Part shown: positions 33,043 to 56,677 of the stretch, piece by piece
Layout: every line of letters begins with the position of its first letter
How positions within the stretch are numbered: position 1 is the first letter of the stretch
Assembly (NCBI GenBank): GCA_934182615.1
Contig: CAKPRO010000001.1
Location: 78,197 to 142,196, forward strand
Reading direction: 5' to 3'
DNA length: 64,000 bases
From: an uncultured Bacilli bacterium
GTDB taxonomy: Bacteria > Bacillota_I > Bacilli_A > RF39 > UBA660
Position numbers and translations under genes: made by a program
Notes under the pieces: generated by a model
What the model saw: the letters and a program-made list of their open reading frames with translations, nothing else
Databases searched by the model: none
What the model was told of the DNA's origin: nothing

Positions 33043-34701
33043 TCATTTATATTCTATAATACTATCTCCTACTAAATCAATCAAATCATCAATAGAAGAT
33101 TTTTCTTTCTTATTATTATCATTATTTTCTATTTCCTTAACACTATATTTAATTCCTTTTTTTAAATCATCAATATATTTATTTTTAATAACCTTCCATT
33201 TATCATTATCAACAGCAACAGCATAAACTCTATTACCAAAAAGTCTTTCTAATAATTTCTCAGTAACTTCTAAATTACTATTAATTCTACTTGCTGTAGA
33301 TGGATAATTACAAGATAAAATTACATATTGACTTGCTCCAACCACTATATTAGAATCCTTAAGTAACCCAGAAACGACAGAAAATTCTTCATCATCAATA
33401 TAATCATCTAAACTATTCCATCTTAATTTAAACTCTTCTAATACACTCTTTGAAGCTAAAGCCAAAGAATTATTAACTCTAATTTCAACTTGTTCATCAG
33501 AAATAGAACTATCTTTTATTTCCCGGGAAATATTTTCATTATTTTGGGAAATATTTTTCTCTTTTTTCTCAATTATTTCCCGGGAAATAATTTTTTCACT
33601 ACTTTTCTCATTATTTACCATTAGATTTCCAAATTTTAAATCAGAATATTTAAGAATTGAAATCATAAATATAATTGAACTATGATTAGAAATCTTTATA
33701 GAATTTTGAACACCATTAAGGCTTTCTATTAAATCATATAAATCTTTATCATTATATTTATCAGAAACCAATTTGATATAATCGTTTTTAGTAGAAATAC
33801 TTGATAAAATATTAGCATTTTTATACAAAATAACATCTTTAAGAAAAATAAGCATTTCTTCAACAAACTTATTAATGTCTTTACCAGACTCATCTAAATA
33901 ATCAACAAATTCTATTAATTTAACCTTATTATTATTTTTAATATTATCTAATAATGTATAAAGTTCTTCATATGAAACCGAACCATTAACTTTATAAACA
34001 TCATCGATAGTAATATTATCATTAGAATAAGCTACCAATTGATCTAAAAAGTTTATAGCATCTCTCATTCCACCATCAGATAATCTTGCTATTTCATATA
34101 ATGCATCATCATCAATAGTAATATCTTCAAGATTAGAAATTTCTCTAAGTCTTTCCACTATTTTTTTATCATCAATCTTAGAAAATCTAAATTTTTGACA
34201 TCTTGAAGCTATAGTTAATGGTATTTTATGAGGCTCAGTCGTAGCTAAAATAAATATAACATGACTAGGAGGTTCCTCCAAAGTCTTTAAAAGTGCATTA
34301 AATGCTTGTGTTGTAAGCATATGAACTTCATCTATTATATAGACCTTATATTTAGAATTACTAGGAACTAAATTAATTTTATCCCTTAATTCTCTGATTT
34401 CATCAACACCATTATTCGAAGCAGCATCTATTTCAACAATATCATTACTATTCAAATAATTAAGACAATTATAACATTTCCCACATGGGTTACCATCAAC
34501 TAAATTTTCACAATTAACTAATCTTGCAATAATTTTAGCAATAGTAGTCTTTCCCGTTCCTCTAGGTCCACAAAAAAGATAAGCATGGGACACTTTTCCA
34601 GAAACAATAGCATTTTTAATAACAGTAACAACCTCTTCTTGTCCATAAACACTATTAAAATCAACAGGTCTATATTTTCTATACAAAGCTAAATATCCCA
34701 T
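33043..34701 (-). CDS. dnaX: DNA polymerase III subunits gamma/tau
   Basis: GPRGTGKTT Walker A, CGKCYNC zinc module and an SRC motif (TIASRCQ); 552 aa. The linker region contains two in-frame Noc-binding palindromes. Confidence 0.95.
   Translation of the reverse strand: MGYLALYRKYRPVDFNSVYGQEEVVTVIKNAIVSGKVSHAYLFCGPRGTGKTTIAKIIARLVNCENLVDGNPCGKCYNCLNYLNSNDIVEIDAASNNGVDEIRELRDKINLVPSNSKYKVYIIDEVHMLTTQAFNALLKTLEEPPSHVIFILATTEPHKIPLTIASRCQKFRFSKIDDKKIVERLREISNLEDITIDDDALYEIARLSDGGMRDAINFLDQLVAYSNDNITIDDVYKVNGSVSYEELYTLLDNIKNNNKVKLIEFVDYLDESGKDINKFVEEMLIFLKDVILYKNANILSSISTKNDYIKLVSDKYNDKDLYDLIESLNGVQNSIKISNHSSIIFMISILKYSDLKFGNLMVNNEKSSEKIISREIIEKKEKNISQNNENISREIKDSSISDEQVEIRVNNSLALASKSVLEEFKLRWNSLDDYIDDEEFSVVSGLLKDSNIVVGASQYVILSCNYPSTASRINSNLEVTEKLLERLFGNRVYAVAVDNDKWKVIKNKYIDDLKKGIKYSVKEIENNDNNKKEKSSIDDLIDLVGDSIIEYK
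33517..33599. promoter_or_regulatory. Two Noc-binding-site palindromes (TATTTCCCGGGAAATA) inside the dnaX coding sequence
   Basis: Exact 16-mers at 33517-33532 and 33584-33599, translated in frame as ...ISREI... / KIISREII in the tau linker. A TTGGGAAATAT half-site lies between them. Confidence 0.7.
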
Positions 34702-34748
34702 AAAATACCTCCTACATAAACATTATACCACATAAAACAAAGAAAACA

Positions 34749-35177
34749 TCATTTTTTTCTCTTTTTTTTAAAAAAATCAGATAATATTTCAGAGCATTTA
34801 TTGCTTTTAATATAATTCAAAGAAACATATGGCTCTACAGTTGTTTTATTGTACATTTGTATGCCTTGTCTGATAGTGCCATAATAAATATTTTTAATTC
34901 TACTCTCCATAATAGCTCCAACACACATCATACAAGGCTCTAAAGTAACATATAAAGAGCAGTCATCTAACCTCCAACTCCCCAATTTTCGACACGCTCT
35001 GCTGATAGCCACTATCTCAGCATGCATTATAGCATCATTTTCCCTCTCTTTTTCATTGTATCCACAGGCGATGAGCTCATTTCCTCGAAATATGGCACAA
35101 CCAACAGGTATTTCATCCAAATTATAAGCAATTTTAGCTTGCTCAAAAGCCACTTCTAATTTATCAACATCCATCAT
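34749..35177 (-). CDS. tadA: tRNA-specific adenosine deaminase
   Basis: HAE and PC..C CMP/dCMP deaminase zinc motifs (HAEIVAI, EPCMMCVGA). Preferred start is the ATG at 35177, which has an AGAGGAGAAG RBS. The longer ORF to 35210 begins with MFHVEH, which is simply the parS palindrome read as codons. Confidence 0.85.
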   Translation of the reverse strand: MMDVDKLEVAFEQAKIAYNLDEIPVGCAIFRGNELIACGYNEKERENDAIMHAEIVAISRACRKLGSWRLDDCSLYVTLEPCMMCVGAIMESRIKNIYYGTIRQGIQMYNKTTVEPYVSLNYIKSNKCSEILSDFFKKKRKK

Positions 35178-35203
35178 AATATCTTCTCCTCTATGTTCCA
35201 CGT

Positions 35204-35968
35204 GGAACATAAAAAAATATTATCATAGTAATTATCAAATTTCAAAATATTATATTTTAAATTAAACAAAACATTTAAAAATCTCATGTTCCACGTGAAA
35301 CATTGATTGTTTTTTTATAATTAAATTTATTATTAATAATCATTAACAACAAAAATATAATAATAAAAGAATATAATTCAAAGATTACAAAAAAAATATA
35401 AATAGCTTTTTAAAATAAATAAAAATTGTTGATGAATTCATGTTCCACGTGAAACATTAAAATAATCATTTATCTAAAGCAAGTTATTATTAATTTCAAA
35501 TATACAAAAAATAATAATTAAAACATATAAAAATAAAATACGTAATAATTTAATTTGAAAATTATATAGGAAAAAGCTGTTGATAATCTATGTTCCACGT
35601 GAAACATAGAATTTACTTTCAAATTTTATTTAATATTTAATACATAAAACATTTCTAATCAACATAGTATTAAAAATTATTTCTATTAAATAATTTTTTT
35701 TATGGCTAATTTAATATATTTTTTACATATATTAATTAACTGTTGATAACCAATGTTCCACGTGGAACATGAGTTATTATTTTATAATTAAATTTGTTAT
35801 TAATAATCATTAATGAATAAAATACAATAATAAATATATATAATTCAAAAATCACATAACAAATATAAACGACTTTTAAAAATAAATAAAAAATTGTTGA
35901 TAACCAATGTTCCACGTGGAACATGAAGTTAGTTATCTAATTATTATTGCTATGTTTCACGTGAAACA
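35204..35968. repeat. Tandem array of seven parS (ParB/Spo0J centromere) sites, ~150-bp period, each unit with a DnaA-box-like TTATCAACA
   Basis: 16-mers at 35204-35219, 35287-35302, 35441-35456, 35591-35606, 35754-35769, 35908-35923, 35953-35968. Three are TGTTCCACGTGAAACA (exact B. subtilis consensus), three are the symmetric TGTTCCACGTGGAACA, one is fully palindromic TGTTTCACGTGAAACA. Spacers are paralogous AT-rich ~130-bp units ending in TGTTGATAA(CC). Confidence 0.8.
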
Positions 35969-36007
35969 TAGTATAATTTTAAATCTAATTTATCAACAGG
36001 CATAAAA

Positions 36008-36086
36008 AAAGATACACACACTAAATAAATGTTAAAGCTGCTGACTTCCGTCCCTGACTTGGTTCCATCATTTAATGTTGTATCAA
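36008..36086 (-). ncRNA. ffs: Small (4.5S-type) signal recognition particle RNA
   Basis: Minus strand contains CCAAGUCAGGGACGGAAGUCAGCAGC, matching the conserved SRP domain IV (AGGUCAGGUCCGGAAGGAAGCAGC). 5' and 3' ends can pair; a U-run lies at 36001-36010. A perfect promoter sits upstream. Confidence 0.6.
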
Positions 36087-36091
36087 CAAGT

Positions 36092-36120
36092 ATTATATAA
36101 CAATTAAAAAACATAGTCAA
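36092..36120 (-). promoter_or_regulatory. Sigma-A promoter of the SRP RNA (TTGACT-17-TATAAT)
   Basis: Minus strand TTGACT (plus 36115-36120), a 17-nt spacer and TATAAT (plus 36092-36097), about 7 nt before the predicted RNA 5' end. Confidence 0.55.
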
Positions 36121-36233
36121 TATAAGCAAATAAACATACAAATGTATGTTTATTTGCTTATAAACTATATATATTAAAGAATTTTATAAAATTAATAATT
36201 GCTTAATTGTGATTAAAATTTAGTAATAAAAAT

Positions 36234-36249
36234 TATTTCCCGGGAAATA
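36234..36249. promoter_or_regulatory. Noc-binding-site palindrome TATTTCCCGGGAAATA
   Basis: Exact 16-mer within an extended AATTATTTCCCGGGAAATAA, downstream of gyrA. Confidence 0.65.
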
Positions 36250-36254
36250 AAATA

Positions 36255-36288
36255 TAAAAATGAAGACACCAAGACTTCATTTTTTACA
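36255..36288 (-). terminator. Intrinsic terminator downstream of gyrA
   Basis: Minus strand AAAAATGAAGTCTTGGTGTCTTCATTTTTATATTTT: a GC-poor hairpin plus U-run. Confidence 0.45.
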
Positions 36289-36290
36289 TT

Positions 36291-36341: not shown

Positions 36342-36354
36342 AAAAAAAAGAAAG

Positions 36355-38883: not shown

Positions 38884-38890
38884 AAACCTC

Positions 38891-40826: not shown

Positions 40827-41927
40827 TCAAATTATTTCCCGGGAAATAATTTTACCATTTTCTATTCTATAAACATTAGCTTTATTTCTCACATTTTTAT
40901 CAATATTTTCAATATCCGTAGTAGTAACTATCGTTTGAATATCATTATCTAAATATTTAATTACCTTATTTCTCTTATCAATATCTAATTCACTAAATAT
41001 ATCATCCAAAAGTAAAATAGGCGTATCAGACAAAACATCCGTAAATAATTTAACTTCTGCTAACTTAAGAGCAAGTACAGCACTCCTTATTTGTCCCTGT
41101 GAACCATATAAAGATAAATTCTTTCCATTCAAATCAAAATAAAAATCATCTCTATTAGGTCCAATAAAAGTAATCTTATACTGAATTTCTCTTGATAAAT
41201 TACTTTTAAGTTTATCTTTAAATAAATTATTATCTAAATTACTAACATTAGAAGTATATATCATCTTAAGTCCTTCTAATCCTGTAATAGAACTAAATAT
41301 ATCATCTATATATTTATTAACTAAGTCTACATATTTCCTTCTAAAATTATAAATAACTATTGATAAACCAATATATTTATCATTAAGAATATCTAAATAA
41401 TTCATATCACTCTCTTTATTAATATTAATAATCTTCAAAAATTCATTTCTTTGACGTAAAACTAAATTATAATTATTTAAATTTGCTAAATAAATCTTAT
41501 TAATTTGACTAATTTGAATATTAAAGTATTTTCTTCTACAAGATGGACTATCTTTAAATATTCTAATACTATCACTACTAAAAAGAATAACATTCATTTT
41601 AGAAATATAGTCACTTAATTTTTTGATCTCTTTTTTATTTATCTTAACAACCTTACCATTCTCATTAATTAATAGTTCAAGTTCATCATAAGAACCATTA
41701 TAATCAACAATTCCTTTAATCATTGAATATCTACTATTAAAATTAATAAGATTCTTATCACTAATAGATAAAAAAGACTTCGTAACAGCAAGTACATAAA
41801 TAGATTCTAGTAAATTAGTTTTTCCTTGAGCATTATCTCCTATTATAATATTTAAATTATTATTAAATTCTAATAAAATATCATCATAATTACGATAATT
41901 TTTTAAATAAATTTTTTGTAATTTCAA
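40827..41927 (-). CDS. recF: DNA replication and repair protein RecF
   Basis: GDNAQGKTNLLE Walker A and an ABC signature; 366 aa. The last eight codons (KIISREII) and the TGA stop are supplied by a Noc-binding palindrome. Confidence 0.95.
   Translation of the reverse strand: MKLQKIYLKNYRNYDDILLEFNNNLNIIIGDNAQGKTNLLESIYVLAVTKSFLSISDKNLINFNSRYSMIKGIVDYNGSYDELELLINENGKVVKINKKEIKKLSDYISKMNVILFSSDSIRIFKDSPSCRRKYFNIQISQINKIYLANLNNYNLVLRQRNEFLKIININKESDMNYLDILNDKYIGLSIVIYNFRRKYVDLVNKYIDDIFSSITGLEGLKMIYTSNVSNLDNNLFKDKLKSNLSREIQYKITFIGPNRDDFYFDLNGKNLSLYGSQGQIRSAVLALKLAEVKLFTDVLSDTPILLLDDIFSELDIDKRNKVIKYLDNDIQTIVTTTDIENIDKNVRNKANVYRIENGKIISREII
40833..40848. promoter_or_regulatory. Noc-binding-site palindrome forming the recF 3' end (part of a 29-bp repeat identical to 53707-53735)
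   Basis: CAAATTATTTCCCGGGAAATAATTTTACC at 40827-40855 is identical to 53707-53735. Confidence 0.7.
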
Positions 41928-42053: not shown

Positions 42054-42509
42054 TTATTTTTCAACGGTTTTTCTCATAATTCCATTTAAATATTTTTCTA
42101 TCTTTATACACTTCGTAATTTGATTATCAATCGTAGTATAAGGTACCTTAATATTCATCTCTTTACCATTATCAAAATATATTTTTGTACCATTACTTTC
42201 TTTAACATATCTAGTAATATTATTATAAGCAAGCCATATACATTTCTTAGAACTAGGAGTACATGTAGGAAAGAAAATAATCATATTATAAGAAGATACA
42301 ATAATAGGAGTCTTAATATAATAATTAAAAATATCAATAACAAATTGCCTCTGAATATTATAAGAATTACCATAAAAATTACACCCATATTTAAGTAATT
42401 TAAGACAATCAATACTCAAATAAAAATCCTTATTCTTCTCCACAACATAAGTACCATATCCATTAGAAGTAAAGCACAAAACATCATCAGTAAGAATATA
42501 ATTTCTCAT
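42054..42509 (-). CDS. comK: ComK family protein (competence transcription factor family)
   Basis: Alignable to B. subtilis ComK across the conserved core: CNFYGNSY / CRFFGSSY; KTPIIVSSYNMIIFFPT / KPPIMVDPSNQIFLFPT; FDNGKEMNIKVPY / FSNGKTMELPISY. The start is assigned to the ATG at 42509, which has a GGAGAGGGGGA RBS. Confidence 0.7.
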   Translation of the reverse strand: MRNYILTDDVLCFTSNGYGTYVVEKNKDFYLSIDCLKLLKYGCNFYGNSYNIQRQFVIDIFNYYIKTPIIVSSYNMIIFFPTCTPSSKKCIWLAYNNITRYVKESNGTKIYFDNGKEMNIKVPYTTIDNQITKCIKIEKYLNGIMRKTVEK

Positions 42510-42707
42510 AAAATCCCCCTCTCCACATATAAAAATATGTACCATGTATTAAAGCATATAATCATGTCGAATTTTATCAAAATATGTCGTAAATTATCAA
42601 AAATTTTCCTTTTCTTAACATTTCTATCATCAAAATTACTGTTTTATCACAAAAAAAATAGATAAAAGAATCAAATCCCTTATCTATTAAACAAATATAA
42701 ATCAAAA

Positions 42708-43832: not shown

Positions 43833-43974
43833 CCTCTTTCTTTTATTATTTATTTATTATATTATTATTATTATGCTGTGGATATTGTGGAAAACTCACC
43901 TTTACCCTTGTTTTATATACTTTTACTTATCCACAATACCTGTTGATAACTTCAAACTTTTCCACTATCAACAA
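43833..43974. other. oriC part 2 (dnaA-dnaN spacer): DnaA-box cluster plus AT-rich unwinding element
   Basis: Perfect TTATCCACA at 43927-43935. Variants: ATATCCACA (43878-43886, reverse), TTTTCCACA (43887-43895, reverse), TTATCAACA (43941-43949, reverse), CTATCAACA (43965-43973). A pure A/T run at 43840-43875 lies next to the dnaN start. Confidence 0.8.
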
Positions 43975-45345
43975 CTATATTCTCTTTTTTAACTCCTCAA
44001 TTACTGTTTGTAACTGATAATTTGTCTCTAAATCTTTCTCTATTTTTTGATATGCACTTATTATTGTTGAGTGGTCTCTACCTCCAAAGTAAGTTCCCAT
44101 CTTTGGATATGACTCATTTGTCATTATTCTACACAAGTATATAGCTATTTGCCGCTGATAGTTTATATCCTTACTTCTTTTTTTACCTTTTAAATCTTCA
44201 ATATCTATCTTAAAGTACTCACAGACAATTCTCTGAATCCTATGAATATCATTTTTATATACACTACGTTCACTAATTTTATCTTTTAAAGCCTCAATAG
44301 CAATATCTAAAGTAACAACTCCATGATTCATCATTAGTGCATAAGCAAAAACCCTTGTAATTGCTCCTTCTAACTGTCTAACATCGGAATCATTAATATT
44401 AGCAATATACTCAATGACTTCAATCGGAATATCTTCCGCTGCCTCCTGATGAGATATCTTCCTTTTAATAATATCTACTCTCAGTCCAAAATCAGGTGGA
44501 GTGATATTAGCAGTAAGACCCCAATTAAACCTTGTAATAAGCCTATTTTCTAACATCTTTAAATCATCAACAGACCTGTCGGAAGCTATAATAATTTGTT
44601 TATTTGAGTCATGTAACTGATTAAAAGTATGGAAGAATTCTTCTTGTCCTTTAGTAGCGGACCCTAAAAATTGAATATCATCAATAATTAGAACATCAAT
44701 ATTCCTATACTTATTCTTAAAAGAATCAATCTTATCAAAACTATTCTTCTCATTATTTCTAACCGCCGCTATATAATCATTAACAAACTGTTCACTTGAC
44801 ACATACAAAACCTTCTTATTCGTATTTTGAATAATATAATTACCAATAGCATGCATTAAATGTGTTTTACCAAGTCCACTTTTACCATATAAAAATAAAG
44901 GATTATAAGCTTTACCAGGTTTTTCCGCCACCGCTCTAGCAGCAGTAAAAGCAAACCTATTCGAGTTACCTACAATAAAACTATCAAAAGTATATTCGCT
45001 ATTTAGATTAGCGGAAGCACTAGTTTGATGTGGAACTCCCATACTTTCATTAGAAGTACCAATAATAACCTCTTCATTATTATCACTAATTTCATTAATT
45101 TCGTTTTCTAAAATAAATTTAAAATTAAAATTTGTTCCCGTAATAGAATTAAAAGTTTCTTCAATATCATCAATATAATTTTCTTCTAAATGTTTTTTAT
45201 GTAAAGCTAAAGGAACGATAATAGTGGCAGTACCACCATCTAATTTATATAATTTAGTATCCTTAAACCAAGTATCATAAGATAAAGGAGTAATACGTTC
45301 TTTAATTTTATCAAGAAATTCATTCCATAAATTATCCGTATTCAT
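43975..45345 (-). CDS. dnaA: Chromosomal replication initiator protein DnaA
   Basis: 456 aa with an AAA+ domain (GKSGLGKTHLMHAIGN) and a C-terminal DnaA-box binding domain. Confidence 0.97.
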   Translation of the reverse strand: MNTDNLWNEFLDKIKERITPLSYDTWFKDTKLYKLDGGTATIIVPLALHKKHLEENYIDDIEETFNSITGTNFNFKFILENEINEISDNNEEVIIGTSNESMGVPHQTSASANLNSEYTFDSFIVGNSNRFAFTAARAVAEKPGKAYNPLFLYGKSGLGKTHLMHAIGNYIIQNTNKKVLYVSSEQFVNDYIAAVRNNEKNSFDKIDSFKNKYRNIDVLIIDDIQFLGSATKGQEEFFHTFNQLHDSNKQIIIASDRSVDDLKMLENRLITRFNWGLTANITPPDFGLRVDIIKRKISHQEAAEDIPIEVIEYIANINDSDVRQLEGAITRVFAYALMMNHGVVTLDIAIEALKDKISERSVYKNDIHRIQRIVCEYFKIDIEDLKGKKRSKDINYQRQIAIYLCRIMTNESYPKMGTYFGGRDHSTIISAYQKIEKDLETNYQLQTVIEELKKRI

Positions 45346-45439
45346 ATCAAAACCTCCTTAATCAAATCTGCCATTAATCTTATTATATCTCAAAAAAAAA
45401 TTTTGTCTAGATATTTTTTTTAATTAACAGGTAAAATAA

Positions 45440-45580
45440 CAAGTTATCCACAACTTATCAACAATATAATACCATATAAAATAAGACTTTAAAAGACTTT
45501 TCCACAATTTTTGTCAATTTTTGTTGTCAACAGTCAACAGCTTTACTTTTCCACAGCCCTGTGGATATTGTGGATAAATA
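45440..45580. other. oriC part 1 (upstream of dnaA): DnaA-box cluster
   Basis: TTATCCACA at 45445-45453 and 45569-45577 (reverse); TTATCAACA at 45455-45463; TTTTCCACA at 45498-45506 and 45547-45555; ATATCCACA at 45560-45568 (reverse). Confidence 0.8.
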
Positions 45581-45609: not shown

Positions 45610-47370
45610 CTAGTTACTTTTCCACTGTATCATCCACTTGTCAAATATTTTAGCATTTGTACTCTGTGGTTCTGGATTAGGAAGTTGCATTTTTACAATA
45701 AGTGGAATCTTCATCATCTTACCAAATGCAACACAAGTACCAGATTGAAGTGATTTTTGTTTTTCAATAACATCACTACTAATATTAGGAACCATCTTTT
45801 CAATATACTCTAAATCACTAGGATGGTTAATTTTAAATATTAAGAAATTACTACACTGTGATAAAACAGTTTCAGATAGTTCAGTAGGTCTTTGCGTAAT
45901 TAAATCAAGACATATACCAAATTTTCTACCTTCTTTAGCAATTCTTTCAAATATATTATATCCAAGAATATTAATATCATTATCCTTCTGAACATATCTA
46001 TGAGCCTCCTCTAGCATAAGATGCATTGGCATACTACCTCTAGTAGGAAGCTTTTTAGCAAAGTTAAAGATAATTCTTGCATATACTTTAACAAGAGCTT
46101 TAGCAAATCTATCATCAATATTTTCTAATACAAAATTAATAATTTGTGCTCTCTTATTATTACTCACTAATATTAAATCAGAAATAAATTCATTTACAGT
46201 AATAAACTTATCACATTCAAAATACTTTCTCATAGAACTATTAGCAATAGTATGTAATTTAACTTTTAAAGCTGTAGCTTCAGCATAAGATTTCTCATTA
46301 AGAAGAAGTCCTTCAGATATTAATGTAAAGTTAAGAGCTACTTCTAAATCGTCAATTGTAAAGAAAGTAGGTACATAATCCTCATTCCATTTAGTTTCAT
46401 TATCGACAAACTTCTTAATATATTCAGTAATAAGAATTCTTTCTACAAATTGCCCTTGACTATCAATTTCAAAACATTTTCTAAAAGTTCTAGTATAACC
46501 AACACCAGGTACTTCAACATCTAAGTTAAGTTCAGGTGTATGACAATCAGTCAAAATAGAAAATATTTGGTCTCTAATTCTAGCAGATACTTGATTAGAA
46601 TACATAACTGATACAATAGCGGATGCAATTAAATGGTTTTTATATCTATTAGATTCCTCATCATTTTTAGCAAATAAAGAAACATAAGCAAGCATCTTTT
46701 CAATAATCATAATTTGTGAATAATCAGTTACATCAAGTATATTAGCATAATCATCAACAGAAAGTAACCATAAAGGTAATTTAAGAATATTAACTCCCTT
46801 ATCAGTATCAGTGCTAAACATCTTGTAATTAAAATTATAATTATAACTAGAAATACTACTAAAAGCACTATCATATTCATCAGTATTATTAAATATAAAA
46901 ATAATACTATTAAAAGGAATATAATTAGGCATAGTAAATAAATTTTGTACTAATCTAGCAACACCATAAGTTTTACCAGAACCAGTATTACCAAAAATAG
47001 CACTATGATTGCTCCACATATCATCAATATTAATTTTAATAGGGCTATCGTTATACAAAGGAGAAAGTCCTAGCATCATTGCAGTATTGTCATTATACCC
47101 AGTAAGTTCTGCTAATTCATCAGCATTAATAATTCTAATTTTAGAATTAATACTAGGTTTTCTAATAATACCATCATAAAATTTGCTTCCATGAAATTCT
47201 CCTAAAAAACTAATTTTAGCCTCTCCGTTCATAATTTCTTCTACTTCACCTAATATTTTTTTATTATTTTCTTCAAAAACAACATTTAAGTTAAGTAAAT
47301 CATCAGTAATAACATTATCAATTTTAACAATAGCATAATTTTTACTGATAGCAATAATTTCTTTAAACAT
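45610..47370 (-). CDS. HerA/FtsK-like (DUF87) P-loop ATPase with N-terminal HAS-barrel-like region, solitary
   Basis: Walker A AIFGNTGSGKTYG, Walker B LMLEEAH, and the GICLDLITQRP arginine-finger segment typical of HerA-type ATPases. Start assigned to the ATG at 47370, which has an AAGAAGGG RBS. Confidence 0.7.
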   Translation of the reverse strand: MFKEIIAISKNYAIVKIDNVITDDLLNLNVVFEENNKKILGEVEEIMNGEAKISFLGEFHGSKFYDGIIRKPSINSKIRIINADELAELTGYNDNTAMMLGLSPLYNDSPIKINIDDMWSNHSAIFGNTGSGKTYGVARLVQNLFTMPNYIPFNSIIFIFNNTDEYDSAFSSISSYNYNFNYKMFSTDTDKGVNILKLPLWLLSVDDYANILDVTDYSQIMIIEKMLAYVSLFAKNDEESNRYKNHLIASAIVSVMYSNQVSARIRDQIFSILTDCHTPELNLDVEVPGVGYTRTFRKCFEIDSQGQFVERILITEYIKKFVDNETKWNEDYVPTFFTIDDLEVALNFTLISEGLLLNEKSYAEATALKVKLHTIANSSMRKYFECDKFITVNEFISDLILVSNNKRAQIINFVLENIDDRFAKALVKVYARIIFNFAKKLPTRGSMPMHLMLEEAHRYVQKDNDINILGYNIFERIAKEGRKFGICLDLITQRPTELSETVLSQCSNFLIFKINHPSDLEYIEKMVPNISSDVIEKQKSLQSGTCVAFGKMMKIPLIVKMQLPNPEPQSTNAKIFDKWMIQWKSN

Positions 47371-47451
47371 AATCGCCCTTCTTTCTATTCTAAGTAAATT
47401 ATACCAAATAAATATCAAAAAATAAATAACTTTTTAATAATTTTTTAGAGT

Positions 47452-47495
47452 AGTTCGCACTTTGTTGCTCACTATTTTTAAAGCCTAGGGTCTTT
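47452..47495 (+). repeat. REP-like element (copy d) in the ltaS-like 5' region
   Basis: AGTTCGCAC...GCTCACTAT...TTTTAAAG-CCTAGGGT-CTTTAAAA. Confidence 0.55.
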
Positions 47496-47596
47496 AAAAA
47501 ATAATTTTAAGCCAAAATTGTCTTAAAATTAATATTTTTCTTCAATTATTTACAAAATATTAAATATATAGTATAATTTCATTAGTGGTGATTTTT

Positions 47597-49570
47597 GTGA
47601 AAAAAGAAGTAAAACAAAAAAAGAATAAAAAAAATATAAATAAAAAAACAAAATATGAAGAAATAAAAAATAAAGTTAAAGATTTTATTTTAAAATATTA
47701 TTATATATTAATTATATCATTACCTTTTATATTAATCGATATAATAACTAAAATATTGGGATACAAAATACATTTCTATGGAATATTTAGATTAGTACCA
47801 TGTTTATTTACTCTCACATATATAATCCTAATGGTTGGAATATCCCTATTCTTAGAAAAAAAGAAAGGTAAGATAGTATATACAATCTTTTTTATATTAG
47901 CCTTTGCTTTATTTATAACTAACAATATCTACTATTCAATGACTAACACATTCTTTGATTTTAGTTTAATTATGTTAGCAGGAGAAGGCTCAGACTACTT
48001 TATGGATGCTATTTTAAATTGTAATATTTGGGTATATATATCAAGTGTAATAATAATAATATCTTATATATTTGGATTAAAACAATTTAAAGAAAGAAAG
48101 AAAACAGACTTAAAAAAAATAATAAAAGTATTTTTCTTATTTTTAATTCTTCATTTAATAACTCCATTATTCTTAGGAAAACCAAATGATACCTTAACAT
48201 GGAGTACATGGAGAAATCCAAGAAATATATATATAAATTTCAATGATAACAATAAAAGTATGATGGTATCAGGAATATATGAATATAGTATTAGAAATTT
48301 CTATATAACATTTATTAAAGCTAAAAAAACAGATAATGAAGAAGATATAACTTTTCTTGAAGAAGAATATAATAAAGAAGAAGAAAATTATCAAACAAGT
48401 TATACTGGAAAATTTAAAGATAAAAATGTAATCTTTCTTCAATTAGAGGGAACCGATAACTGGTTAATAACAAAAGAAGATACACCAACTCTATATAATA
48501 TGATGAATAATTCTATTAACTTTACTAATCATTATTCATATTATAATGGCGGTGGATCAACCTTCAATTCAGAGTTTGCAGTAAATACAGGATTTATAAC
48601 ACCTCTATCATATACCCAAAACGCTTATTCATTTAATAAAAATTCATTCCCATATTCATTAGCAAAATTATTAAAAAATAAAAATTATAGTGTTAATGCC
48701 TTCCATATGAATGATGGAGAATATTATTCAAGAGCAACAAATTATAAAAATTGGGGTTATGATAACTATTATGGTTTAAAAGAACTAGGAACATATAAAG
48801 ATGATGCCTATACATTAGATAGAGAATTAATATTAAATGAAACATTTAAAGAAAAAATGTTTAGTGAAGAAAAATTTGCCGATTATATAATAACTTACTC
48901 AGGACACTTACCATTTACTACAGAAAAAGGTGTATGTAAAAAATTAGTAACTGAAGATATATTAAAAGAACAAGGATTAGAAGAACTTCCATCAGATTAT
49001 ATTCTACCTACTATGAGTGAAGAAGATTGTGCTAGAAGACAAGCTAAAGAAACAGATTATATGGTTGAACTTCTAATAAATACACTAACTGAGAAGAATT
49101 TAATAGACAATACAGTAATAGTAGTATTCACTGATCATTATCTATATACCTTATCAGATCAAACAATATTAGATAAATATAAAGATACAAGTAATAATTT
49201 AATAAATCATACTCCATTCTTTATATGGGACAATGGAAATACTAAAAAGAAAGTAACATCTGTAACATCACAATTAAATATATTACCTACTATAATAAAT
49301 CTATTAGGTTTAGAATATCATCCTAATTACTATATAGGAAAAGATGCTTTAAATGGTAGTTACAATGGCATAGTCTTCTTTAGTGATTATTCATGGTATG
49401 ATGGAAATGTATATGTTGATGGCGGAGCAGTAACCAATAACAAATACATAGACCAAGTATCATTAGAAGATAAAAATTATTATATAAACTACATTATAAG
49501 AAAAAACGATTTAACATTAAAATATAATTATTTCAAAAAGATATCTACTTCAAAAGATAAAGAAGTATAA
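47597..49570 (+). CDS. ltaS: LTA synthase family protein (LtaS-like sulfatase-fold, polytopic N-terminus)
   Basis: Five N-terminal TM helices plus an extracellular sulfatase-like domain (YNGGGSTFNSEF). Start assigned to GTG 47597, which has an AGTGGTGAT RBS. Same start sequence GTGAAAAAAGAAGTA as the 5257 gene. Confidence 0.75.
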   Translation: MKKEVKQKKNKKNINKKTKYEEIKNKVKDFILKYYYILIISLPFILIDIITKILGYKIHFYGIFRLVPCLFTLTYIILMVGISLFLEKKKGKIVYTIFFILAFALFITNNIYYSMTNTFFDFSLIMLAGEGSDYFMDAILNCNIWVYISSVIIIISYIFGLKQFKERKKTDLKKIIKVFFLFLILHLITPLFLGKPNDTLTWSTWRNPRNIYINFNDNNKSMMVSGIYEYSIRNFYITFIKAKKTDNEEDITFLEEEYNKEEENYQTSYTGKFKDKNVIFLQLEGTDNWLITKEDTPTLYNMMNNSINFTNHYSYYNGGGSTFNSEFAVNTGFITPLSYTQNAYSFNKNSFPYSLAKLLKNKNYSVNAFHMNDGEYYSRATNYKNWGYDNYYGLKELGTYKDDAYTLDRELILNETFKEKMFSEEKFADYIITYSGHLPFTTEKGVCKKLVTEDILKEQGLEELPSDYILPTMSEEDCARRQAKETDYMVELLINTLTEKNLIDNTVIVVFTDHYLYTLSDQTILDKYKDTSNNLINHTPFFIWDNGNTKKKVTSVTSQLNILPTIINLLGLEYHPNYYIGKDALNGSYNGIVFFSDYSWYDGNVYVDGGAVTNNKYIDQVSLEDKNYYINYIIRKNDLTLKYNYFKKISTSKDKEV

Positions 49571-49605
49571 AAAAAGCTCACTTTAATTTAGTGAACTTTT
49601 TCTTT
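49571..49605. terminator. Bidirectional terminator between the convergent ltaS-like and GT2 genes
   Basis: AAAAAGCTCACT-ttaattt-AGTGAACTTTTT hairpin. Confidence 0.45.
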
Positions 49606-51111
49606 TACATTAGTATCAATATCATCAATAGTAACTTTACTATCATGTGGTATAGGTTTCCATGTAACTTTCATAAATAATGCTGCATAAGTAGTATATC
49701 TACCAATAATATCAAATATTGGCCAAGTAATAGTATATAATACTTTTTTCTTAAAAGTCATCTTTTTAATATTTTTTCTTTCAATAATAAATACATAAAC
49801 AGCTACCCACATGTTCTGTATATACATACCCATTCGATAGAATAATCTAAGCCAAATAGCAGTAATCATTCCAATAAATAAAGCATTAATACCAGGCTCT
49901 ACAGAAATCTTAATTGAAAATAAATTTCTAAGACCTTTAGCCAAATAAGTACCACCACTAAGTAAATCAATATTATTAATACCATTGTTGTAGTAGTAGC
50001 AACTTCCCATAATAAGAATAACAATAATCCATTTAGCTAAATTAAATACTGAAAAAGGTGTTAATTGAAGTAAAGTATCATAAGAAGCAAATCTATGTCT
50101 AATAGATTCAATAATACTAAGAATAATATCTTTAAAAGATTTATTATTTTTCTTAGTATTTTCTCTCCACTTAGTTTTAATAAATAATTTACCAAAGAAA
50201 ATATTTAAAAATAAATAAGGACCACTTTCACAGAAGGCAAGTAAATGACCTTTTGACCATCTAAGTCTTTGTCTTAATGCAATCTTTAAGCTAGTAGGTT
50301 GCTCATCATAAAACATAGCCTCATCATTATAAGTAATCTGATATCCCTGTGCAACAGCATCTGCTGTAAGTGCTCTATCCTCAGTAAGAGAAGTATATTT
50401 CCAGCCATCCTTTACTATCTCACTAGCAAATAAGAAACCAGTACCCTGTATATTAGTAGCTAGTCTAAGAACAGACCTAGCTCTATGATTACATCTTATC
50501 GATCTAATCCAGTGAATAGCATAAGTAGAAGCAATCCAGTTTTCATCAAAATTCTTCGTATTACGATAAGAAGTAATAATTTTTTCACCAGAATCAAAGG
50601 CATCATTCATCTTAGAAATATAATTTCCATTAAGAAGATTATCAGCATCAAAGATAAAGTATCCCTCAAAACTCATTCTACCATAATCTTCACCTATTTT
50701 TTCTAATAAATATTGAAGAGCAAATCCTTTAGTTTTATGTTCATTATCAAATCTTTCGTAGCAGATAGCTCCATGCTTTCTAGCAATATCAGCAGTATTA
50801 TCAGTACAATTATCCGCTACTACAAAAGTAGTAATAAGTTCTTTTGGATAATCTTGTTTATTAATACTATCAAGTAAGTTACCAATGACATTTTTTTCAT
50901 TTCTTGCTGCTATCAATATAGCATATTTATGTTTATTTTTAGCAGGTTTAAACTTCCTAGTAAAGAAAACACCAATTAACCAATATAAAGTTTTATAAGC
51001 CATCATAATAACAAGAATTTTACCAATAATATTGTATACATTTTTCCAAGCAAGATAAGAATCTCCTATTGAATTAATAATATTAAAAAAATACATCACA
51101 TACAACCTCAC
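49588..51111 (-). CDS. Processive family-2 glycosyltransferase (membrane; PgaC/IcaA/cellulose-synthase-like)
   Basis: GT-A fold with DAD (FIFDADNLL) and QRLRWSKG (QxxRW) motifs, plus C-terminal TM helices; 507 aa. Confidence 0.7.
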   Translation of the reverse strand: MRLYVMYFFNIINSIGDSYLAWKNVYNIIGKILVIMMAYKTLYWLIGVFFTRKFKPAKNKHKYAILIAARNEKNVIGNLLDSINKQDYPKELITTFVVADNCTDNTADIARKHGAICYERFDNEHKTKGFALQYLLEKIGEDYGRMSFEGYFIFDADNLLNGNYISKMNDAFDSGEKIITSYRNTKNFDENWIASTYAIHWIRSIRCNHRARSVLRLATNIQGTGFLFASEIVKDGWKYTSLTEDRALTADAVAQGYQITYNDEAMFYDEQPTSLKIALRQRLRWSKGHLLAFCESGPYLFLNIFFGKLFIKTKWRENTKKNNKSFKDIILSIIESIRHRFASYDTLLQLTPFSVFNLAKWIIVILIMGSCYYYNNGINNIDLLSGGTYLAKGLRNLFSIKISVEPGINALFIGMITAIWLRLFYRMGMYIQNMWVAVYVFIIERKNIKKMTFKKKVLYTITWPIFDIIGRYTTYAALFMKVTWKPIPHDSKVTIDDIDTNVKEKVH

Positions 51112-51220
51112 TTCAGAAATATTGTATCATACATTGACATTTAATACAATAAAAAAACTCCCTAATAAAAAATGTTTGAATAATTATGTTAAATATGATA
51201 TTATATAACCGGTGATAATT

Positions 51221-52363
51221 ATGCATGTAATAGGAGTAATAGCGGAATATAATCCTTTTCACAAAGGACATTTATATCAAATAAATAAAATAAAAGAAAA
51301 ATATCCCAATAGTCTTTTAGTAGTGGTTACTTCTTCTTCTTTTACACAAAGAGGAGATATCTCACTACTAAATAAATGGGATAAAACAAAAATAGCTTTA
51401 GATAATAATGTCGATTTAGTCGTAGAGTTACCATTTGTCTATTCAACTCAGTCTTCTGATCTTTTTGCAGAAGGTGCAATTAGTATTCTAAATGCCTTAA
51501 AAATAGATACTCTTGTTTTTGGTACAGAAAGAGATAATATTAGCGACTTAGAACTCCTAGCAGATATTCAAATAAATAATATAGAGTATCAAGACAAAGT
51601 AAAAGAATATCTAAGTCAAGGATTAAACTATGCAACATCTACTAATAAAGCCCTTGAAGATTTAACTAATATAAAAGTAGATACTCCTAATGACTTATTA
51701 GCTTTGTCTTATATAAAACAAATAAAAAAACATAACTACCCAATAAAATATATAAATATAAAAAGAACAACATCATATCACGGTTCAGAAGTATTAGATA
51801 ACATAACATCAGCATCAAATATCAGAAAACTATATCTATCAGATAATACCATAGATAATCTAATACCATTTGATAAAAAATATCTTTATAAAATAGATAT
51901 GAATAAGTATTATGACATACTAAAATACAAAATATTAGCAGAAGATACAAGTATCAGCAAATATCAAACAGTAGATGAAGGCATTGAATCAAGAATAATA
52001 AAAAGTATTTATATATCAAATAACTATGAAAAATTAATTCAAAATATTAAAACCAAAAGATATACTTATAATAAAATATCTAGAATGCTTCTTCATATAC
52101 TCGTAGGCTTTACCAAAGAAGATGCTAGTAATATATCTATAGATTACATAAGAATATTAGGCTTTAATAAAAGAGGTCAAGAATATTTAAACAAAATAAA
52201 AAAAGAATTATCAATACCTTTAGTTATAGGATATAAAAAAAATATATCTAAAGTATTAGATATAGAATTAAAGGCTACAAAAATATATGCCTTAGTTACA
52301 GATGTGTCTCTTATTAAAAGAGAATATCAAATAAAACCAATAATTAAAGAAAATAATGACTAA
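51221..52363 (+). CDS. tmcAL: tRNA(Met) cytidine acetate ligase (TmcAL/YlbM nucleotidyltransferase family)
   Basis: GVIAEYNPFHKGHLYQ HIGH-like motif. Start assigned to the ATG at 51221, which has a GGTGAT RBS. Confidence 0.8.
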   Translation: MHVIGVIAEYNPFHKGHLYQINKIKEKYPNSLLVVVTSSSFTQRGDISLLNKWDKTKIALDNNVDLVVELPFVYSTQSSDLFAEGAISILNALKIDTLVFGTERDNISDLELLADIQINNIEYQDKVKEYLSQGLNYATSTNKALEDLTNIKVDTPNDLLALSYIKQIKKHNYPIKYINIKRTTSYHGSEVLDNITSASNIRKLYLSDNTIDNLIPFDKKYLYKIDMNKYYDILKYKILAEDTSISKYQTVDEGIESRIIKSIYISNNYEKLIQNIKTKRYTYNKISRMLLHILVGFTKEDASNISIDYIRILGFNKRGQEYLNKIKKELSIPLVIGYKKNISKVLDIELKATKIYALVTDVSLIKREYQIKPIIKENND

Positions 52364-52763
52364 AAATGTCTTTTATTTTCCCACTAAATAGAGATTCAAT
52401 AATCTCTTTTTTTTCATCTTTATCCTTAGATAAAAGCAAACTAGCCGTTAAAGTAATCTTTTCATTATTACCATTCTTATATTTATCATATTCTTCCCTT
52501 ACATTAATATATTTAGCATCCTCATCACTGTCAATATCATTCATAGTAAATATATAAGCCTTAAATCTATTACTATTCTTATTATCATAAATATTAAGAA
52601 TAATATTGTCTCCTAATATTTTATATTGAATATAGACATACTCTTCCTTTTTAATATCAAAATCATAACCAAAAATATCATTTACAAAGTCATTAAGTAA
52701 CCCCTCATTCATTACATCAATTAAAGATAATCTAAATATTTCGTCATTCATAAAATTCACCAC
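52344..52763 (-). CDS. Hypothetical protein (139 aa, acidic, no recognised domain)
   Basis: ORF with a plausible start; overlaps the tmcAL 3' end convergently by 20 nt. Confidence 0.3.
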   Translation of the reverse strand: MVNFMNDEIFRLSLIDVMNEGLLNDFVNDIFGYDFDIKKEEYVYIQYKILGDNIILNIYDNKNSNRFKAYIFTMNDIDSDEDAKYINVREEYDKYKNGNNEKITLTASLLLSKDKDEKKEIIESLFSGKIKDIFSHYFL

Positions 52764-52807
52764 TTTTAAATTACCATATAGATAATAGTAAAGTCAATAA
52801 AAAAAAT

Positions 52808-53672: not shown

Positions 53673-53711
53673 ATATATCACCTCTTTTATTACTTAAATT
53701 ATTTTCCAAAT

Positions 53712-53727
53712 TATTTCCCGGGAAATA
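53712..53727. promoter_or_regulatory. Noc-binding-site palindrome immediately 3' of polA (29-bp copy identical to the recF 3' end)
   Basis: CAAATTATTTCCCGGGAAATAATTTTACC at 53707-53735. Confidence 0.7.
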
Positions 53728-53734
53728 ATTTTAC

Positions 53735-56329
53735 CTATTTAGCCTCATACCAATTATTTCCCAACTCTATATCTACATCGAGTGGTACCTTTAAATCAAA
53801 TACATTAGTCATAGTATTATATACAATCTCTTTAACTTTATCAATTTCATCATCGTATACATTAAATATTAATTCGTCATGTACTTGAAGAATCATCTTA
53901 CTCTTAATATTTTCTTTTTCAAATATTTCATCAATTTCAATCATAGCTTTTTTCAAAATATCTGAAGCTGACCCTTGAACAGGAGTATTAAGAGCCATTC
54001 TTTCACCCATATTTCTAATCATATAATTAGTACTCTTTAATTCATCAATAACTCTCTTTCTATTCATAATAGTTTTAACATAGCCATTCTTTTTAGCAGT
54101 TTCAATTTCTTTATCCATATAGTCTCTAACACCTGGATAAGTATCAAAATATTTATTAATAAATTCTTTAGCCTCTTTAACTGGAATACCTAAGTCTTCA
54201 GCTAAGCCATAACTACTAATACCATATAAAATACCAAAGTTAACAGCTTTAGCCTGCCTACGCATATTTTTAGTAACACCTTCTTGTGGTACTTTAAATA
54301 TATCCATAGCGGTCTTAGTATGAATATCTATACCTTCATTAAAAGCATTTATTAAATCATTAACTCCTGATAAATGAGCAAATACTCTAAGTTCAATCTG
54401 TGAGTAGTCAGAAGATAAAATAACACTATTACTTTCTGGAATAAAAGCCTTTCTAATAAGTCTACCATACTCACTTCTCATCGGAATATTTTGTAAGTTA
54501 GGTTCAATTGAAGATAACCTACCAGTTCTTGTTAAAGTCTGTGTATAAATAGTATGTATTTTACCATCATCACTAATACAGTTAATCATACCATCAATAT
54601 AAGTAGAATAAAGCTTAGTAAGTGCTCTATATTCTAAGATACAATTAACAATAGGATAATCCACTAATTTTTTAAGAACATCAGCATCAGTAGTATATCC
54701 CCCACTTTTATTTTTCTTTCCATAAGGAAGATTAAGCTTTTCAAATAAAATTTCACCAAGTTGTTTAGGAGAATTAATATTAAATTCACATCCAGCATAA
54801 TTATAAATATCCTTAGTAATAAGTTCTAATTTAATTTTAATTTCTTCTCCCATTTCTTTTAAAATATTTTTATCAACTCTAATACCTTCAATTTCCATCT
54901 TAGCAAGTACCTTTGCTAGAGGCATTTCAATATTTTCAAATAGATAAATATTATCTTCTTCTTTCATCTTATTATATAGTTCTTTCTTTGAAGTATAAAT
55001 AAATTTAGCTTTAAGAATAGCTCTCTTACTAGCTTCTTCATCACTTACTACTTCTTTCTTATCATAAATAGGAATATTAAAATTCATATTATTAGCAAGA
55101 TAAGCAATATCATCTTTAGTTTCGTAGTTAAGTAAATAAGCACTAATCATAGTATCAAAAACAATCTTAGGTACTTTAATACCATATCTATTAAATATTA
55201 CAATTAACTTCTTATAATCATAAGTAAATAAATTAAATTCAGTATTTAAAACATTATAATTATTTTTTAATATATCAAAAGGAATATAGTAGGCCAAATT
55301 ATTATTATATAAAGAAATACCAAGTAATTCAGCATCATGATAATTACCAATAGTAGTATCTAACCAGATAGCGGTCTCTTCATTAATTTTAACTTCATTA
55401 ATATCAGTAATGATTTTAAAGTTATCTATACTACTATGTTCTTCTTCCTTTTTATCTTCTTCAATTACATCATCTAATTTTTTAAGAAGAGAATGAAAAC
55501 CTAATTCTTTATAAATATTAGTAAGTTCTTCAATATTACAATTTTTATATTTTAAATCATCAAAACTAGCATCAAGAGGAACTTCTCTATATATTGTAAC
55601 TAAATCTTTACTATAATAAGCATCTTCTTCCCCATCAATAAGTTTAGTTTGTGTAGCACCTTTAATATTATTAATATTAGCATAAATATTTTCAATAGTG
55701 GTATATTCACTAACTAATTTAATAGCTCCTTTTTCTCCAATACCACGAACACCAGGAATGTTATCTGAAGCATCTCCCATTAAAGCCTTTAAATCTATCA
55801 TATGAATAGGTTCAAAACCATATGTCTCGTTAAAAGTTTTTCTATCCATCATAATATAATCTTTAGTTTTAAGTAATTTAACCGTTGTCTCATCACTAAT
55901 TAACTGAAGTAAATCTTTATCACTACTTACAATTAAAGCCTCATATTCTGGATCTTTCTCACACCACATAGATACAGTACCAATAATATCATCGGCTTCA
56001 TAACCGGCACATTCTAAATATTTAATTCCCATTGCTGCAAGTATTTTCTTAGCAATTGGAAATTGTACCTTTAAGTCATCAGGAGTTTCTTTTCTTCCAT
56101 CTTTATATCTTTCATATTTTTCATGTCTAAAAGTCTTACCTATATCAAAAGCCACCATCATATATTCTGGTTTCTCATCATTAACAATTTTATTAATCAT
56201 ATTAACAAAACCATATACTCCATTCGTAGGAAATCCATCTTTATTTCTCATTATATTACCTGTATAAAGAGTAGCATAATAGCTTCTAAATAAAAGATTA
56301 TTACCATCTACTAAAACTATTTTTTTCAT
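53735..56329 (-). CDS. polA: DNA polymerase I
   Basis: 864 aa with a 5'-3' exonuclease domain, a 3'-5' exonuclease-like domain and family A polymerase motifs (DYSQIELR, QVHDEL). Confidence 0.95.
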   Translation of the reverse strand: MKKIVLVDGNNLLFRSYYATLYTGNIMRNKDGFPTNGVYGFVNMINKIVNDEKPEYMMVAFDIGKTFRHEKYERYKDGRKETPDDLKVQFPIAKKILAAMGIKYLECAGYEADDIIGTVSMWCEKDPEYEALIVSSDKDLLQLISDETTVKLLKTKDYIMMDRKTFNETYGFEPIHMIDLKALMGDASDNIPGVRGIGEKGAIKLVSEYTTIENIYANINNIKGATQTKLIDGEEDAYYSKDLVTIYREVPLDASFDDLKYKNCNIEELTNIYKELGFHSLLKKLDDVIEEDKKEEEHSSIDNFKIITDINEVKINEETAIWLDTTIGNYHDAELLGISLYNNNLAYYIPFDILKNNYNVLNTEFNLFTYDYKKLIVIFNRYGIKVPKIVFDTMISAYLLNYETKDDIAYLANNMNFNIPIYDKKEVVSDEEASKRAILKAKFIYTSKKELYNKMKEEDNIYLFENIEMPLAKVLAKMEIEGIRVDKNILKEMGEEIKIKLELITKDIYNYAGCEFNINSPKQLGEILFEKLNLPYGKKNKSGGYTTDADVLKKLVDYPIVNCILEYRALTKLYSTYIDGMINCISDDGKIHTIYTQTLTRTGRLSSIEPNLQNIPMRSEYGRLIRKAFIPESNSVILSSDYSQIELRVFAHLSGVNDLINAFNEGIDIHTKTAMDIFKVPQEGVTKNMRRQAKAVNFGILYGISSYGLAEDLGIPVKEAKEFINKYFDTYPGVRDYMDKEIETAKKNGYVKTIMNRKRVIDELKSTNYMIRNMGERMALNTPVQGSASDILKKAMIEIDEIFEKENIKSKMILQVHDELIFNVYDDEIDKVKEIVYNTMTNVFDLKVPLDVDIELGNNWYEAK

Positions 56330-56414
56330 AACATCACCAAGTCTTTCTATATATAATTATACTAAAAAAAAGCTTTAAAATAAAGTCTTTCTATGTTATT
56401 TTATTTATATAAAT

Positions 56415-56677
56415 TATTTCCCAGGAAATAATTTATTAGTTCGAATCTACGTTTCTCACTATCATTAAAGCCTAATGTCTTTAATGAAAAATATGAAGCC
56501 TATAAAAATAGTCTTCATATTTAACAACATTTTTAATTTAGGTATTATTTTATATAATATTTATTCATTAAAATAACAAAAAACACTTTAAATAAAGACT
56601 ACAGGCTTTATTTAACAGTGAGAGATTACAAGCTCGAACTGAAAAAAAATATTTCCCAAATTATTTCCCGGGAAATA
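56415..56677. repeat. REPIN-like composite: Noc site + REP-like copy b (plus orientation), ~105-bp spacer, REP-like copy c (inverted) + Noc site
   Basis: TATTTCCCAGGAAATA at 56415-56430 (1 mismatch); REP-like 56438-56483; inverted REP-like 56594-56641; TATTTCCCGGGAAATA at 56662-56677 plus an ATATTTCCCAAA half-site. Lies in the polA-polC intergenic region. Confidence 0.65.

Follow-up and report, generated by a model that had tools for sequence, protein, structure and literature searches.

The question raised by this locus is which factor reads a 16-bp palindrome that recurs around dnaA in the genome of an uncultured low-GC firmicute. The stretch analyzed here (64,000 nt of contig CAKPRO010000001.1, positions 78,197 to 142,196; hereafter the window) belongs to a genome that encodes PolC, a ComK homologue, and sporulation proteins and is found in human-gut metagenomes (Hadza and others). 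A motif search of the 64-kb window recovered TATTTCCCGGGAAATA in six exact copies, at 33517, 33574, 36234, 40833, 53712, and 56662, together with a one-mismatch copy, TATTTCCCAGGAAATA, at 56415. This 16-mer matches the binding site (NBS) of the ParB paralogue Noc. According to published work, the NBS is 16 bp long and is set apart from parS by its A at position 1 and its C at position 6 (PMC7383237, PMC8429893), and the window motif is a 16-bp palindrome with A1 and C6. Considering the layout of these sites together with their conservation and the ParB-family proteins of related genomes, the seven palindromes are very probably nucleation (loading) sites for a Noc-type, cytidine triphosphate (CTP)-dependent DNA clamp of the ParB family. 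In Firmicutes, Noc is the classic example of a nucleoid-occlusion factor, and it is the best-studied ParB paralogue with a switched DNA specificity and a CTP-controlled membrane switch. What is known of it from experiment stems from three genera with scattered sites, Bacillus, Geobacillus, and Staphylococcus.

Noc-binding sites around dnaA in the window

The NBS copies and the features among which they lie are as follows (window coordinates).

33517 to 33532: NBS copy 1, exact; inside dnaX, in frame on the minus strand as N-I-S-R-E-I
33574 to 33589: NBS copy 2, exact, extended 22-mer; inside dnaX, in frame as I-I-S-R-E-I-I
35194 to 35968: array of seven canonical parS sites (TGTTYCACGTGRAACA); gyrA-tadA spacer, inside the NBS cluster
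36234 to 36249: NBS copy 3, exact; gyrA-tadA spacer, ~105 nt past the gyrA stop
40833 to 40848: NBS copy 4, exact 22-mer; last recF codons (...GKIISREII and stop), ~26 nt upstream of the gyrB start
43877 to 43949: DnaA-box cluster flanking dnaA
43975 to 45345: dnaA, minus strand
45444 to 45577: DnaA-box cluster flanking dnaA
53696 to 53707: half-site abutting NBS copy 5
53712 to 53727: NBS copy 5, exact 22-mer; 8 nt past the polA stop, upstream of fpg
56415 to 56430: NBS copy 6, one mismatch in the central base pair (CCCAGG); polC-polA spacer, upstream of polA
56646 to 56657: half-site abutting NBS copy 7
56662 to 56677: NBS copy 7, exact; 5 nt past the polC stop

A preliminary description of the window had already listed six exact copies and the mismatched one at 56415, with one of the exact copies misplaced at 33584 instead of 33574. 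Its judgment that such sites are unlikely by chance is borne out by the statistics, since seven copies were observed against 0.02 expected and none of 100 dinucleotide-preserving shuffles gave seven. The GC content of the window is ~25 to 31%, and all six of its CCCGGG hexamers lie within NBS copies. When the 14-mer core was searched with up to three mismatches, just two extra weak matches appeared (19064 and 28892; chance expectation, 2.05), so that a degenerate tail is absent and the sites are all-or-none. The conserved stretch is a palindrome of ~24 bp, AAA(T/A)TATTTCCCGGGAAATA(A/T)TTT, beyond which the flanks are unrelated, and the 10 positions on each side of CCCGGG are conserved as strongly as the hexamer itself. 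The same sites were identical in two other samples of the window species (L001 and L002).

All seven copies span 23 kb, which corresponds to ~1 site per 9 kb over the window and 1 per 3.3 kb inside the cluster, and no NBS was found in the first 33.5 kb of the window, in the 10 kb leftward of it, or in ~12.5 kb rightward. The sites bracket an oriC-like center (43877 to 45577) made up of dnaA and its two DnaA-box clusters, at offsets from dnaA of approximately -10.4, -7.7, and -3.1 kb on one side and +8.4 and +11.1 to +11.3 kb on the other. Several of the sites had been described as embedded in coding sequence; this applies to three of the seven (33517 and 33574 in dnaX, 40833 in recF), while the other four are intergenic. 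The two dnaX copies are separated by 57 bp, with a half-site between them (~33546 to 33556), and the copy at 36234 lies beyond the gyrA terminator hairpin, which precedes it. The mismatched copy at 56415 sits within a ~260-bp insertion of the polC-polA spacer that also holds two inverted hairpins resembling repetitive extragenic palindromes (REP). The close relative L044 is without this insertion and has a short polC-polA spacer with one NBS; copy 6 is probably a decaying duplicate, a by-product of local duplication.

Half-sites of the form AAATTATTT(C/T)CC were also observed near full sites, at 33546 to 33556, 53696 to 53707, and 56646 to 56657, and at ~2900 to 2940 in L044. They abut the full NBS at 53712, at 56662, and in L044, and the one in dnaX sits between two full copies, giving "1.5-site" units of a half-site plus a full NBS.

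The gyrA-tadA array of the window consists of parS only (seven sites), with a single NBS beside it, and is a diverged tandem with a period of ~150 to 160 bp. At three parS sites (35591, 35754, and 35908) a DnaA-box-like TTATCAACA follows directly after a gap of 2 to 3 nt, and two more copies stand at the array edges. A box of this type also accompanies the NBS units of the close relative L060, and the motif is ~5-fold enriched in the gyrA-tadA spacers of relatives (1.11 versus 0.23 per kb).

Conservation and clustering of the sites in related genomes

To place the window sites in context, one genome per GTDB species was scanned for the 22-mer AATTATTTCCCGGGAAATAATT, which gave at least 120 loci; the counts below refer to the matches listed. 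These came almost entirely from uncultured gut "Bacilli/Tenericutes" metagenome-assembled genomes (such as CAG-710, CAG-884, CAG-1000, "Ca. Scybalousia," and "Ca. Onthousia"), the closest of the loci listed being ~80% identical to the window; the window species is not among them. Of the 120 loci listed, 113 lay in one syntenic block of ~30 kb around dnaA, in the order rnpA-yidC-jag-mnmE-mnmG-rsmG-noc, then dnaA-dnaN-comK-recF-gyrB-gyrA-[spacer]-tadA-dnaX-recR-holB-psp1-trmN-rsmI-pth-mfd. An 8-kb piece of a ~1.5-Mb genome would fall in this block by chance in ~2% of cases. The preliminary description had named a uniform distribution as telling against a Noc system; among the matches listed, the distribution is strongly nonuniform.

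Within the relatives' loci, the 259 NBS copies recur at a few places: about 132 are in the gyrA-tadA spacer, 36 inside dnaX, and 15 inside trmN, with smaller recurrent numbers at the rsmI/pth and jag/mnmE junctions. The dnaX-internal sites fall at residues ~345 to 400 in 35 of 36 cases, where 29 read IISREII and 7 read NYFPGNN, and this retention in two reading frames argues for selection on the DNA rather than on the peptide. The recF-end NBS occupies the same position in L014 and L055, with diverged flanks; the polC-end NBS is conserved in L044, whose fpg-polA spacer also carries one. Species sharing such orthologous sites have 70 to 85% nucleotide identity. Overall, these sequence comparisons show the NBS to be under purifying selection at the DNA level.

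Either parS or NBS, or both, occurred in the gyrA-tadA spacer of all 43 relatives (both in 28, parS only in 12, and NBS only in 3). Alternation of parS and NBS in regular tandem arrays is common in this spacer, for instance, in the following loci.

L118: alternating array, 11 units of ~125 bp
L009: alternating array, 6 units of 126 bp
L059: alternating array, 4 units of 126 bp
L008: alternating array, 7 units of 62 bp
L060 (close relative): 4 NBS at 74 bp, then 13 parS at 43 bp

The preliminary description had proposed a two-specificity ParB/Noc system, combining parS and NBS; the array of seven parS sites inside the NBS cluster, the presence of both paralogues in relatives, and these interleaved arrays speak for it, and a dual ParB/Noc zone formed by the NBS sites and the parS array is supported at the sequence level. 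Our literature search found no paper on clustered or parS-interleaved NBS or on Noc in RF39-like bacteria.

Among the few matches outside the clade, two exact 22-mers were observed at or beside the gyrB-gyrA junction, in Ligilactobacillus acidipiscis (L081, 7237) and Listeria fleischmannii (L088, 7917), suggesting that an NBS next to gyrBA may be old within Bacilli. Viral contigs held only two copies of the 22-mer, which leaves a phage origin unsupported.

A Noc-type ParB paralogue in the relatives

ParB-family proteins are encoded in five of the 120 loci listed. Four of these (L067, L082, L098, and L102) have the context mnmE-mnmG-rsmG-noc, and the fifth, L072, has the order noc-soj-spo0J-X-abgT-ychF, with both paralogue types present. 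The context mnmE-mnmG-rsmG-noc was also seen in L131, where noc is directly adjacent to rsmG, while in L139 three genes lie between rsmG and noc. The Noc-type helix-turn-helix (HTH) of the relatives reads GK(S/T)Q..(I/V)(A/S)NKLRLL(N/S/T)L...ISERHAR, corresponding to Q173, K179, and R201, while the ParB-type paralogue (Spo0J of L072) reads GKSRSYITN...ISMGHAR. Two database searches with clade Noc queries returned >7,400 homologues each, all ~70% identical, among which no copy stood out as that of the window species, and Q173, K179, N/S/T at 184, and R201 were present in all 243 homologues that were parsed.

The clade proteins have the Pfam domains ParB_N and HTH_ParB and an intact CTP motif (GERRxRA), with IIAGERRYKA and VENIQR present. 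Their best PDB matches are Geobacillus Noc structures (7NFU/7NG0; 222 bits versus 186 bits for ParB), and their best NCBIfam model is TIGR04285 noc, at 270 to 288 bits, with clade ParB at 231 bits. A long acidic, low-complexity linker lies ahead of a C-terminal end that is Noc-like by comparison with B. subtilis Noc. In the relatives' proteins (P0125 to P0217), this linker has a short, semiconserved motif, (D/S)FN(T/S)FF or NTFEFPEI, which was present in ~60% of the 86 full-length proteins examined. The former resembles the F-x-x-F-F pattern of the N-terminal helix of B. subtilis Noc, and the FNTFF-like motif could represent a motif for membrane binding or partner docking that has been relocated.

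Evidence against a Noc-type factor and the search for noc in the window species

Several observations weigh against assigning the sites to Noc. The comparative scan used only the AATT-flanked form of the 22-mer, so its clustered matches do not prove that NBS are absent elsewhere in these genomes. Residue 184 of clade Noc is N, S, or T and not K, and the scores of 270 to 288 bits fall below the curated nucleoid_noc cutoff of 315 bits. Published work found that Q173, K179, K184, and R201 set NBS specificity and that a single lysine is enough (Jalal 2020; PMC7383237). The clade protein also lacks the N-terminal amphipathic helix: only ~16 to 17 residues precede PNRFQPR, with in-frame stops just upstream, which indicates that it begins where Geobacillus NocNdelta26 begins, and residue 7 of the query aligns with residue 3 of that construct. 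In B. subtilis, Noc needs this helix for membrane binding and division occlusion (PMC8429893). The claim that the sites mark an origin-proximal region rests on dnaA and its DnaA-box clusters and stands to that extent, whereas the third-codon GC skew shows no switch at dnaA, the minus strand being leading across the whole window. The skew is ~0.55 to 0.8 in the left flank, 0.76 left of dnaA, 0.48 right of it, and 0.05 to 0.3 in the right flank.

In addition, phmmer on open reading frames and tblastn recovered neither intact nor remnant noc, parB, or soj from 84 kb of the window species (the 64-kb window and ~20 kb of flanks, 10 kb on each side), and a JGI contig that extends the right side by 3.4 kb has no ParB-family gene either. 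A protein search with the partial protein of the flank, aimed at reaching further sequence, gave no match. L098 is the closest noc-carrying relative among the matches listed and has noc directly upstream of dnaA, where the window species has a herA-like gene. Upstream of abgT-ychF, the noc position in L072, the window species likewise has other genes. Of two steps that the preliminary description had pointed to, finding noc and inspecting its HTH residues, the second succeeded in relatives, where the Q, K, and R residues are in place, and the first gave nothing within these 84 kb. L014 has the herA-dnaA arrangement of the window and has kept an exact 22-mer at the recF end, which suggests that the binding factor has persisted since the rearrangement. 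We infer from this that a Noc-type protein persists elsewhere in the genome of the window species. Two homologues considered as its own noc, P0097 and P0197, were rejected, since both belong to other species.

Alternative explanations

The alternative that survives best, though we consider it unlikely, is that the ParB (Spo0J) of the window species has a relaxed or dual specificity for parS and NBS and that noc was lost in a rearrangement upstream of dnaA. This would account for the lack of noc in the 84 kb and for the herA-like and other genes that fill the position of noc in L098, and promiscuous intermediates are possible (Jalal 2020; PMC7383237). However, a dedicated Noc-type paralogue is present in all sampled relatives showing the region, with both types in L072, and L014 retains its exact 22-mer at the recF end despite sharing the herA-dnaA arrangement. 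Moreover, parS and NBS are sharply distinct in the window, and no intermediate sites occur between them.

It is distinctly unlikely that the palindromes form RNA hairpins serving in weak termination, attenuation, or processing, or that they are operators of an unrelated transcription factor regulating dnaX, recF/gyrB, gyrA, polA, and polC. What is invariant is the sequence rather than the structure, compensatory variants being absent; a terminator scan flagged no NBS, and the gyrA terminator lies upstream of the site there. Three copies do follow directly after or run across stop codons (recF, polA, and polC), and the neighboring genes all belong to replication or repair, but copies inside dnaX and the relatives' tandem arrays, in which as many as 11 copies alternate with parS, fit such a role poorly.

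A mobile or miniature inverted-repeat transposable element (MITE)- or REP-like repeat, spreading with the REP-like hairpin, is a highly improbable source of the palindromes. Three copies (36234, 56415, and 56662) stand 37 to 53 nt from the AAAGCCTnnnGTCTTT hairpin, and the polC-polA spacer holds an inverted pair of NBS-plus-hairpin units that is absent from L044. Yet four NBS are without a nearby hairpin, the hairpin loci at 3333, 47480, and 61396 are without NBS, the flanks diverge past ~24 bp, and the NBS are orthologous across species of 70 to 85% nucleotide identity. The preliminary description had raised constant company of a REP-like element or a transposase as a sign of a mobile palindrome; this was not what was seen, with three of seven copies near a hairpin, three hairpin loci free of NBS, and no transposase present. 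A restriction-modification footprint of the SmaI/XmaI type has a negligible probability, because, although the palindrome has a SmaI site at its center and the window contains no other CCCGGG, avoidance creates neither conserved orthologous 24-bp palindromes nor arrays alternating with parS, and the 10 positions flanking the hexamer on each side are equally conserved.

Proposed mechanism and comparison with known systems

Returning to the Noc-type clamp, we infer that the Noc-type protein of the window species binds, clamps, and spreads at the NBS. Each half-site would be read by the HTH of a Noc dimer, with Gln173 reading A at position 1 and Arg201 reading C at position 6; the dimer would then bind CTP, close as a ring, and slide onto the flanking DNA. 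In the window, loading would occur every 3 to 13 kb on both sides of dnaA. In S. aureus, the 41 Noc loci are confined to ±700 kb around the origin, with spreading over 8 to 10 kb at each. With spreading of that size, the zones of neighboring window sites would overlap or abut over much of 30 to 60 kb, and the region covered by Noc would overlap the ParB domain loaded at the seven-parS array (35.2 to 36.0 kb).

Since the clade Noc is without a membrane-targeting helix, the output of the complex may differ from membrane tethering and nucleoid occlusion in the Bacillus sense. The output may instead be organization of the centromere or origin region or control of replication. We further suggest, tentatively and as a possibility on the doubtful side, that the clade "Noc," rather than being a membrane-tethering nucleoid-occlusion factor, would act as another CTP clamp of the centromere type. 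It would assemble together with ParB on the alternating parS/NBS arrays and on a few dnaA-flanking sites, giving a two-clamp origin-region complex. This could represent an evolutionary intermediate between ParB and Bacillus-type Noc, with the specificity already switched but a centromere-like arrangement of sites retained; the membrane helix would either be a later acquisition or have moved into the linker as the FNTFF-like motif.

The window palindrome matches the 16-bp NBS of B. subtilis and S. aureus, and the relatives' protein shares with their Noc Q173, K179, R201, GERRxRA, and the Noc-like C-terminal end, its gene lying beside rsmG or soj-spo0J. B. subtilis has ~70 NBS. In B. subtilis and S. 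aureus, NBS are dispersed across the half to two-thirds of the chromosome nearest the origin, whereas they are packed in ~23 kb around dnaA in the window and in a ~30-kb block with parS-interleaved arrays in the relatives; the clade protein has ~16 residues before PNRFQPR, as opposed to ~39, an acidic linker, and N, S, or T at residue 184. As judged from these sequences, the recognition code is that of known Noc, and what is new is the clustered layout, the alternation with parS in relatives, and the helix-less protein.

Chromosomal ParB-parS centromeres have multiple palindromic loading sites near dnaA and oriC, as in the seven-parS array here, and the NBS cluster is placed in a similar way. 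The fixed-period, head-to-tail arrays of the relatives (13 parS at 43 bp in L060; 11 units of 125 bp in L118) resemble F sopC, which consists of 12 43-bp repeats, each a SopB site, except that the clade arrays are chromosomal and that their unit holds both parS and NBS in many relatives. SlmA with its binding sites (SBS), the functional analogue of Noc in E. coli, likewise binds DNA at specific sites, which mark the part of the chromosome outside the terminus, but it belongs to the TetR family and recognizes a different, scattered site. Unlike at a ParB-parS centromere, A1 and C6 of the NBS are rejected by canonical ParB (PMC7383237), and a second paralogue is needed.

A clade with thousands of sequenced members thus differs from the studied genera in having NBS packed around dnaA and woven with parS and in having a helix-less protein, and it may offer a handle on the ancestral role of Noc and on cooperation versus competition between two ParB-family clamps. 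In S. aureus, Noc holds back the initiation of replication and has small peaks next to dnaA; the clade may also help to show whether this link is perhaps an old, origin-tied property. The natural alternating parS/NBS cassettes might serve as orthogonal DNA-labeling tools.

Gene setting and other features of the window

Nearly all window genes are on the minus strand. Read from the right end, the succession is sufD, sufS, sufU; polC, polA, fpg; a mixed-strand stretch with a herA-like ATPase; dnaA, dnaN, a comK-like gene, recF, gyrB, and gyrA; the signal recognition particle (SRP) RNA and parS array; and tadA, dnaX, ybaB, recR, holB ... mfd, spoVT ... ychF, pepF. The mixed-strand stretch (45610 to 52763) encodes the herA-like ATPase, a lipoteichoic acid-synthase-like protein, a GT2 protein, a nucleotidyltransferase, and one unknown gene. 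Among relatives, L131 has rpmH-rnpA-yidC-jag-mnmE-mnmG-rsmG-noc in this place and L098 has noc immediately upstream of dnaA, and the stretch looks like a rearrangement or inserted island beside dnaA.

The REP-like hairpin family AAAG(C/T)CT-loop-GTCTTT occurs between genes at 3333, 36291, 47480, 56467, 56594, and 61396. Its stem has a conserved C.T mismatch, the hairpins are often paired, and some are preceded by AGTTCGA..TCTCACT; no Rfam family matched it at the gathering threshold. A search for a fixed REP-plus-NBS composite pattern gave no match. An inverted repeat pair of 113 nt (3170 to 3282 and 23971 to 24083; 79% complementary) had no match in Rfam even at an E value of ≤1; one copy is just upstream of a T-box leader and the other lies between ychF and abgT. 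The leader itself (23719 to 23914) is an ordinary one and precedes an aminoacyl-tRNA-synthetase-like gene.

The third-codon GC skew takes extreme values (up to 0.95) and decays steadily rightward in the window, L002, and L127. The small SRP RNA (36003 to 36089) separates the NBS at 36234 from the parS array. In many Firmicutes, the dnaN-recF interval holds the small S4-like yaaA. In the window, a ComK-family gene (42054 to 42545) lies between dnaN and recF, a placement kept across the clade (L011, L014, L024, L131, and others).

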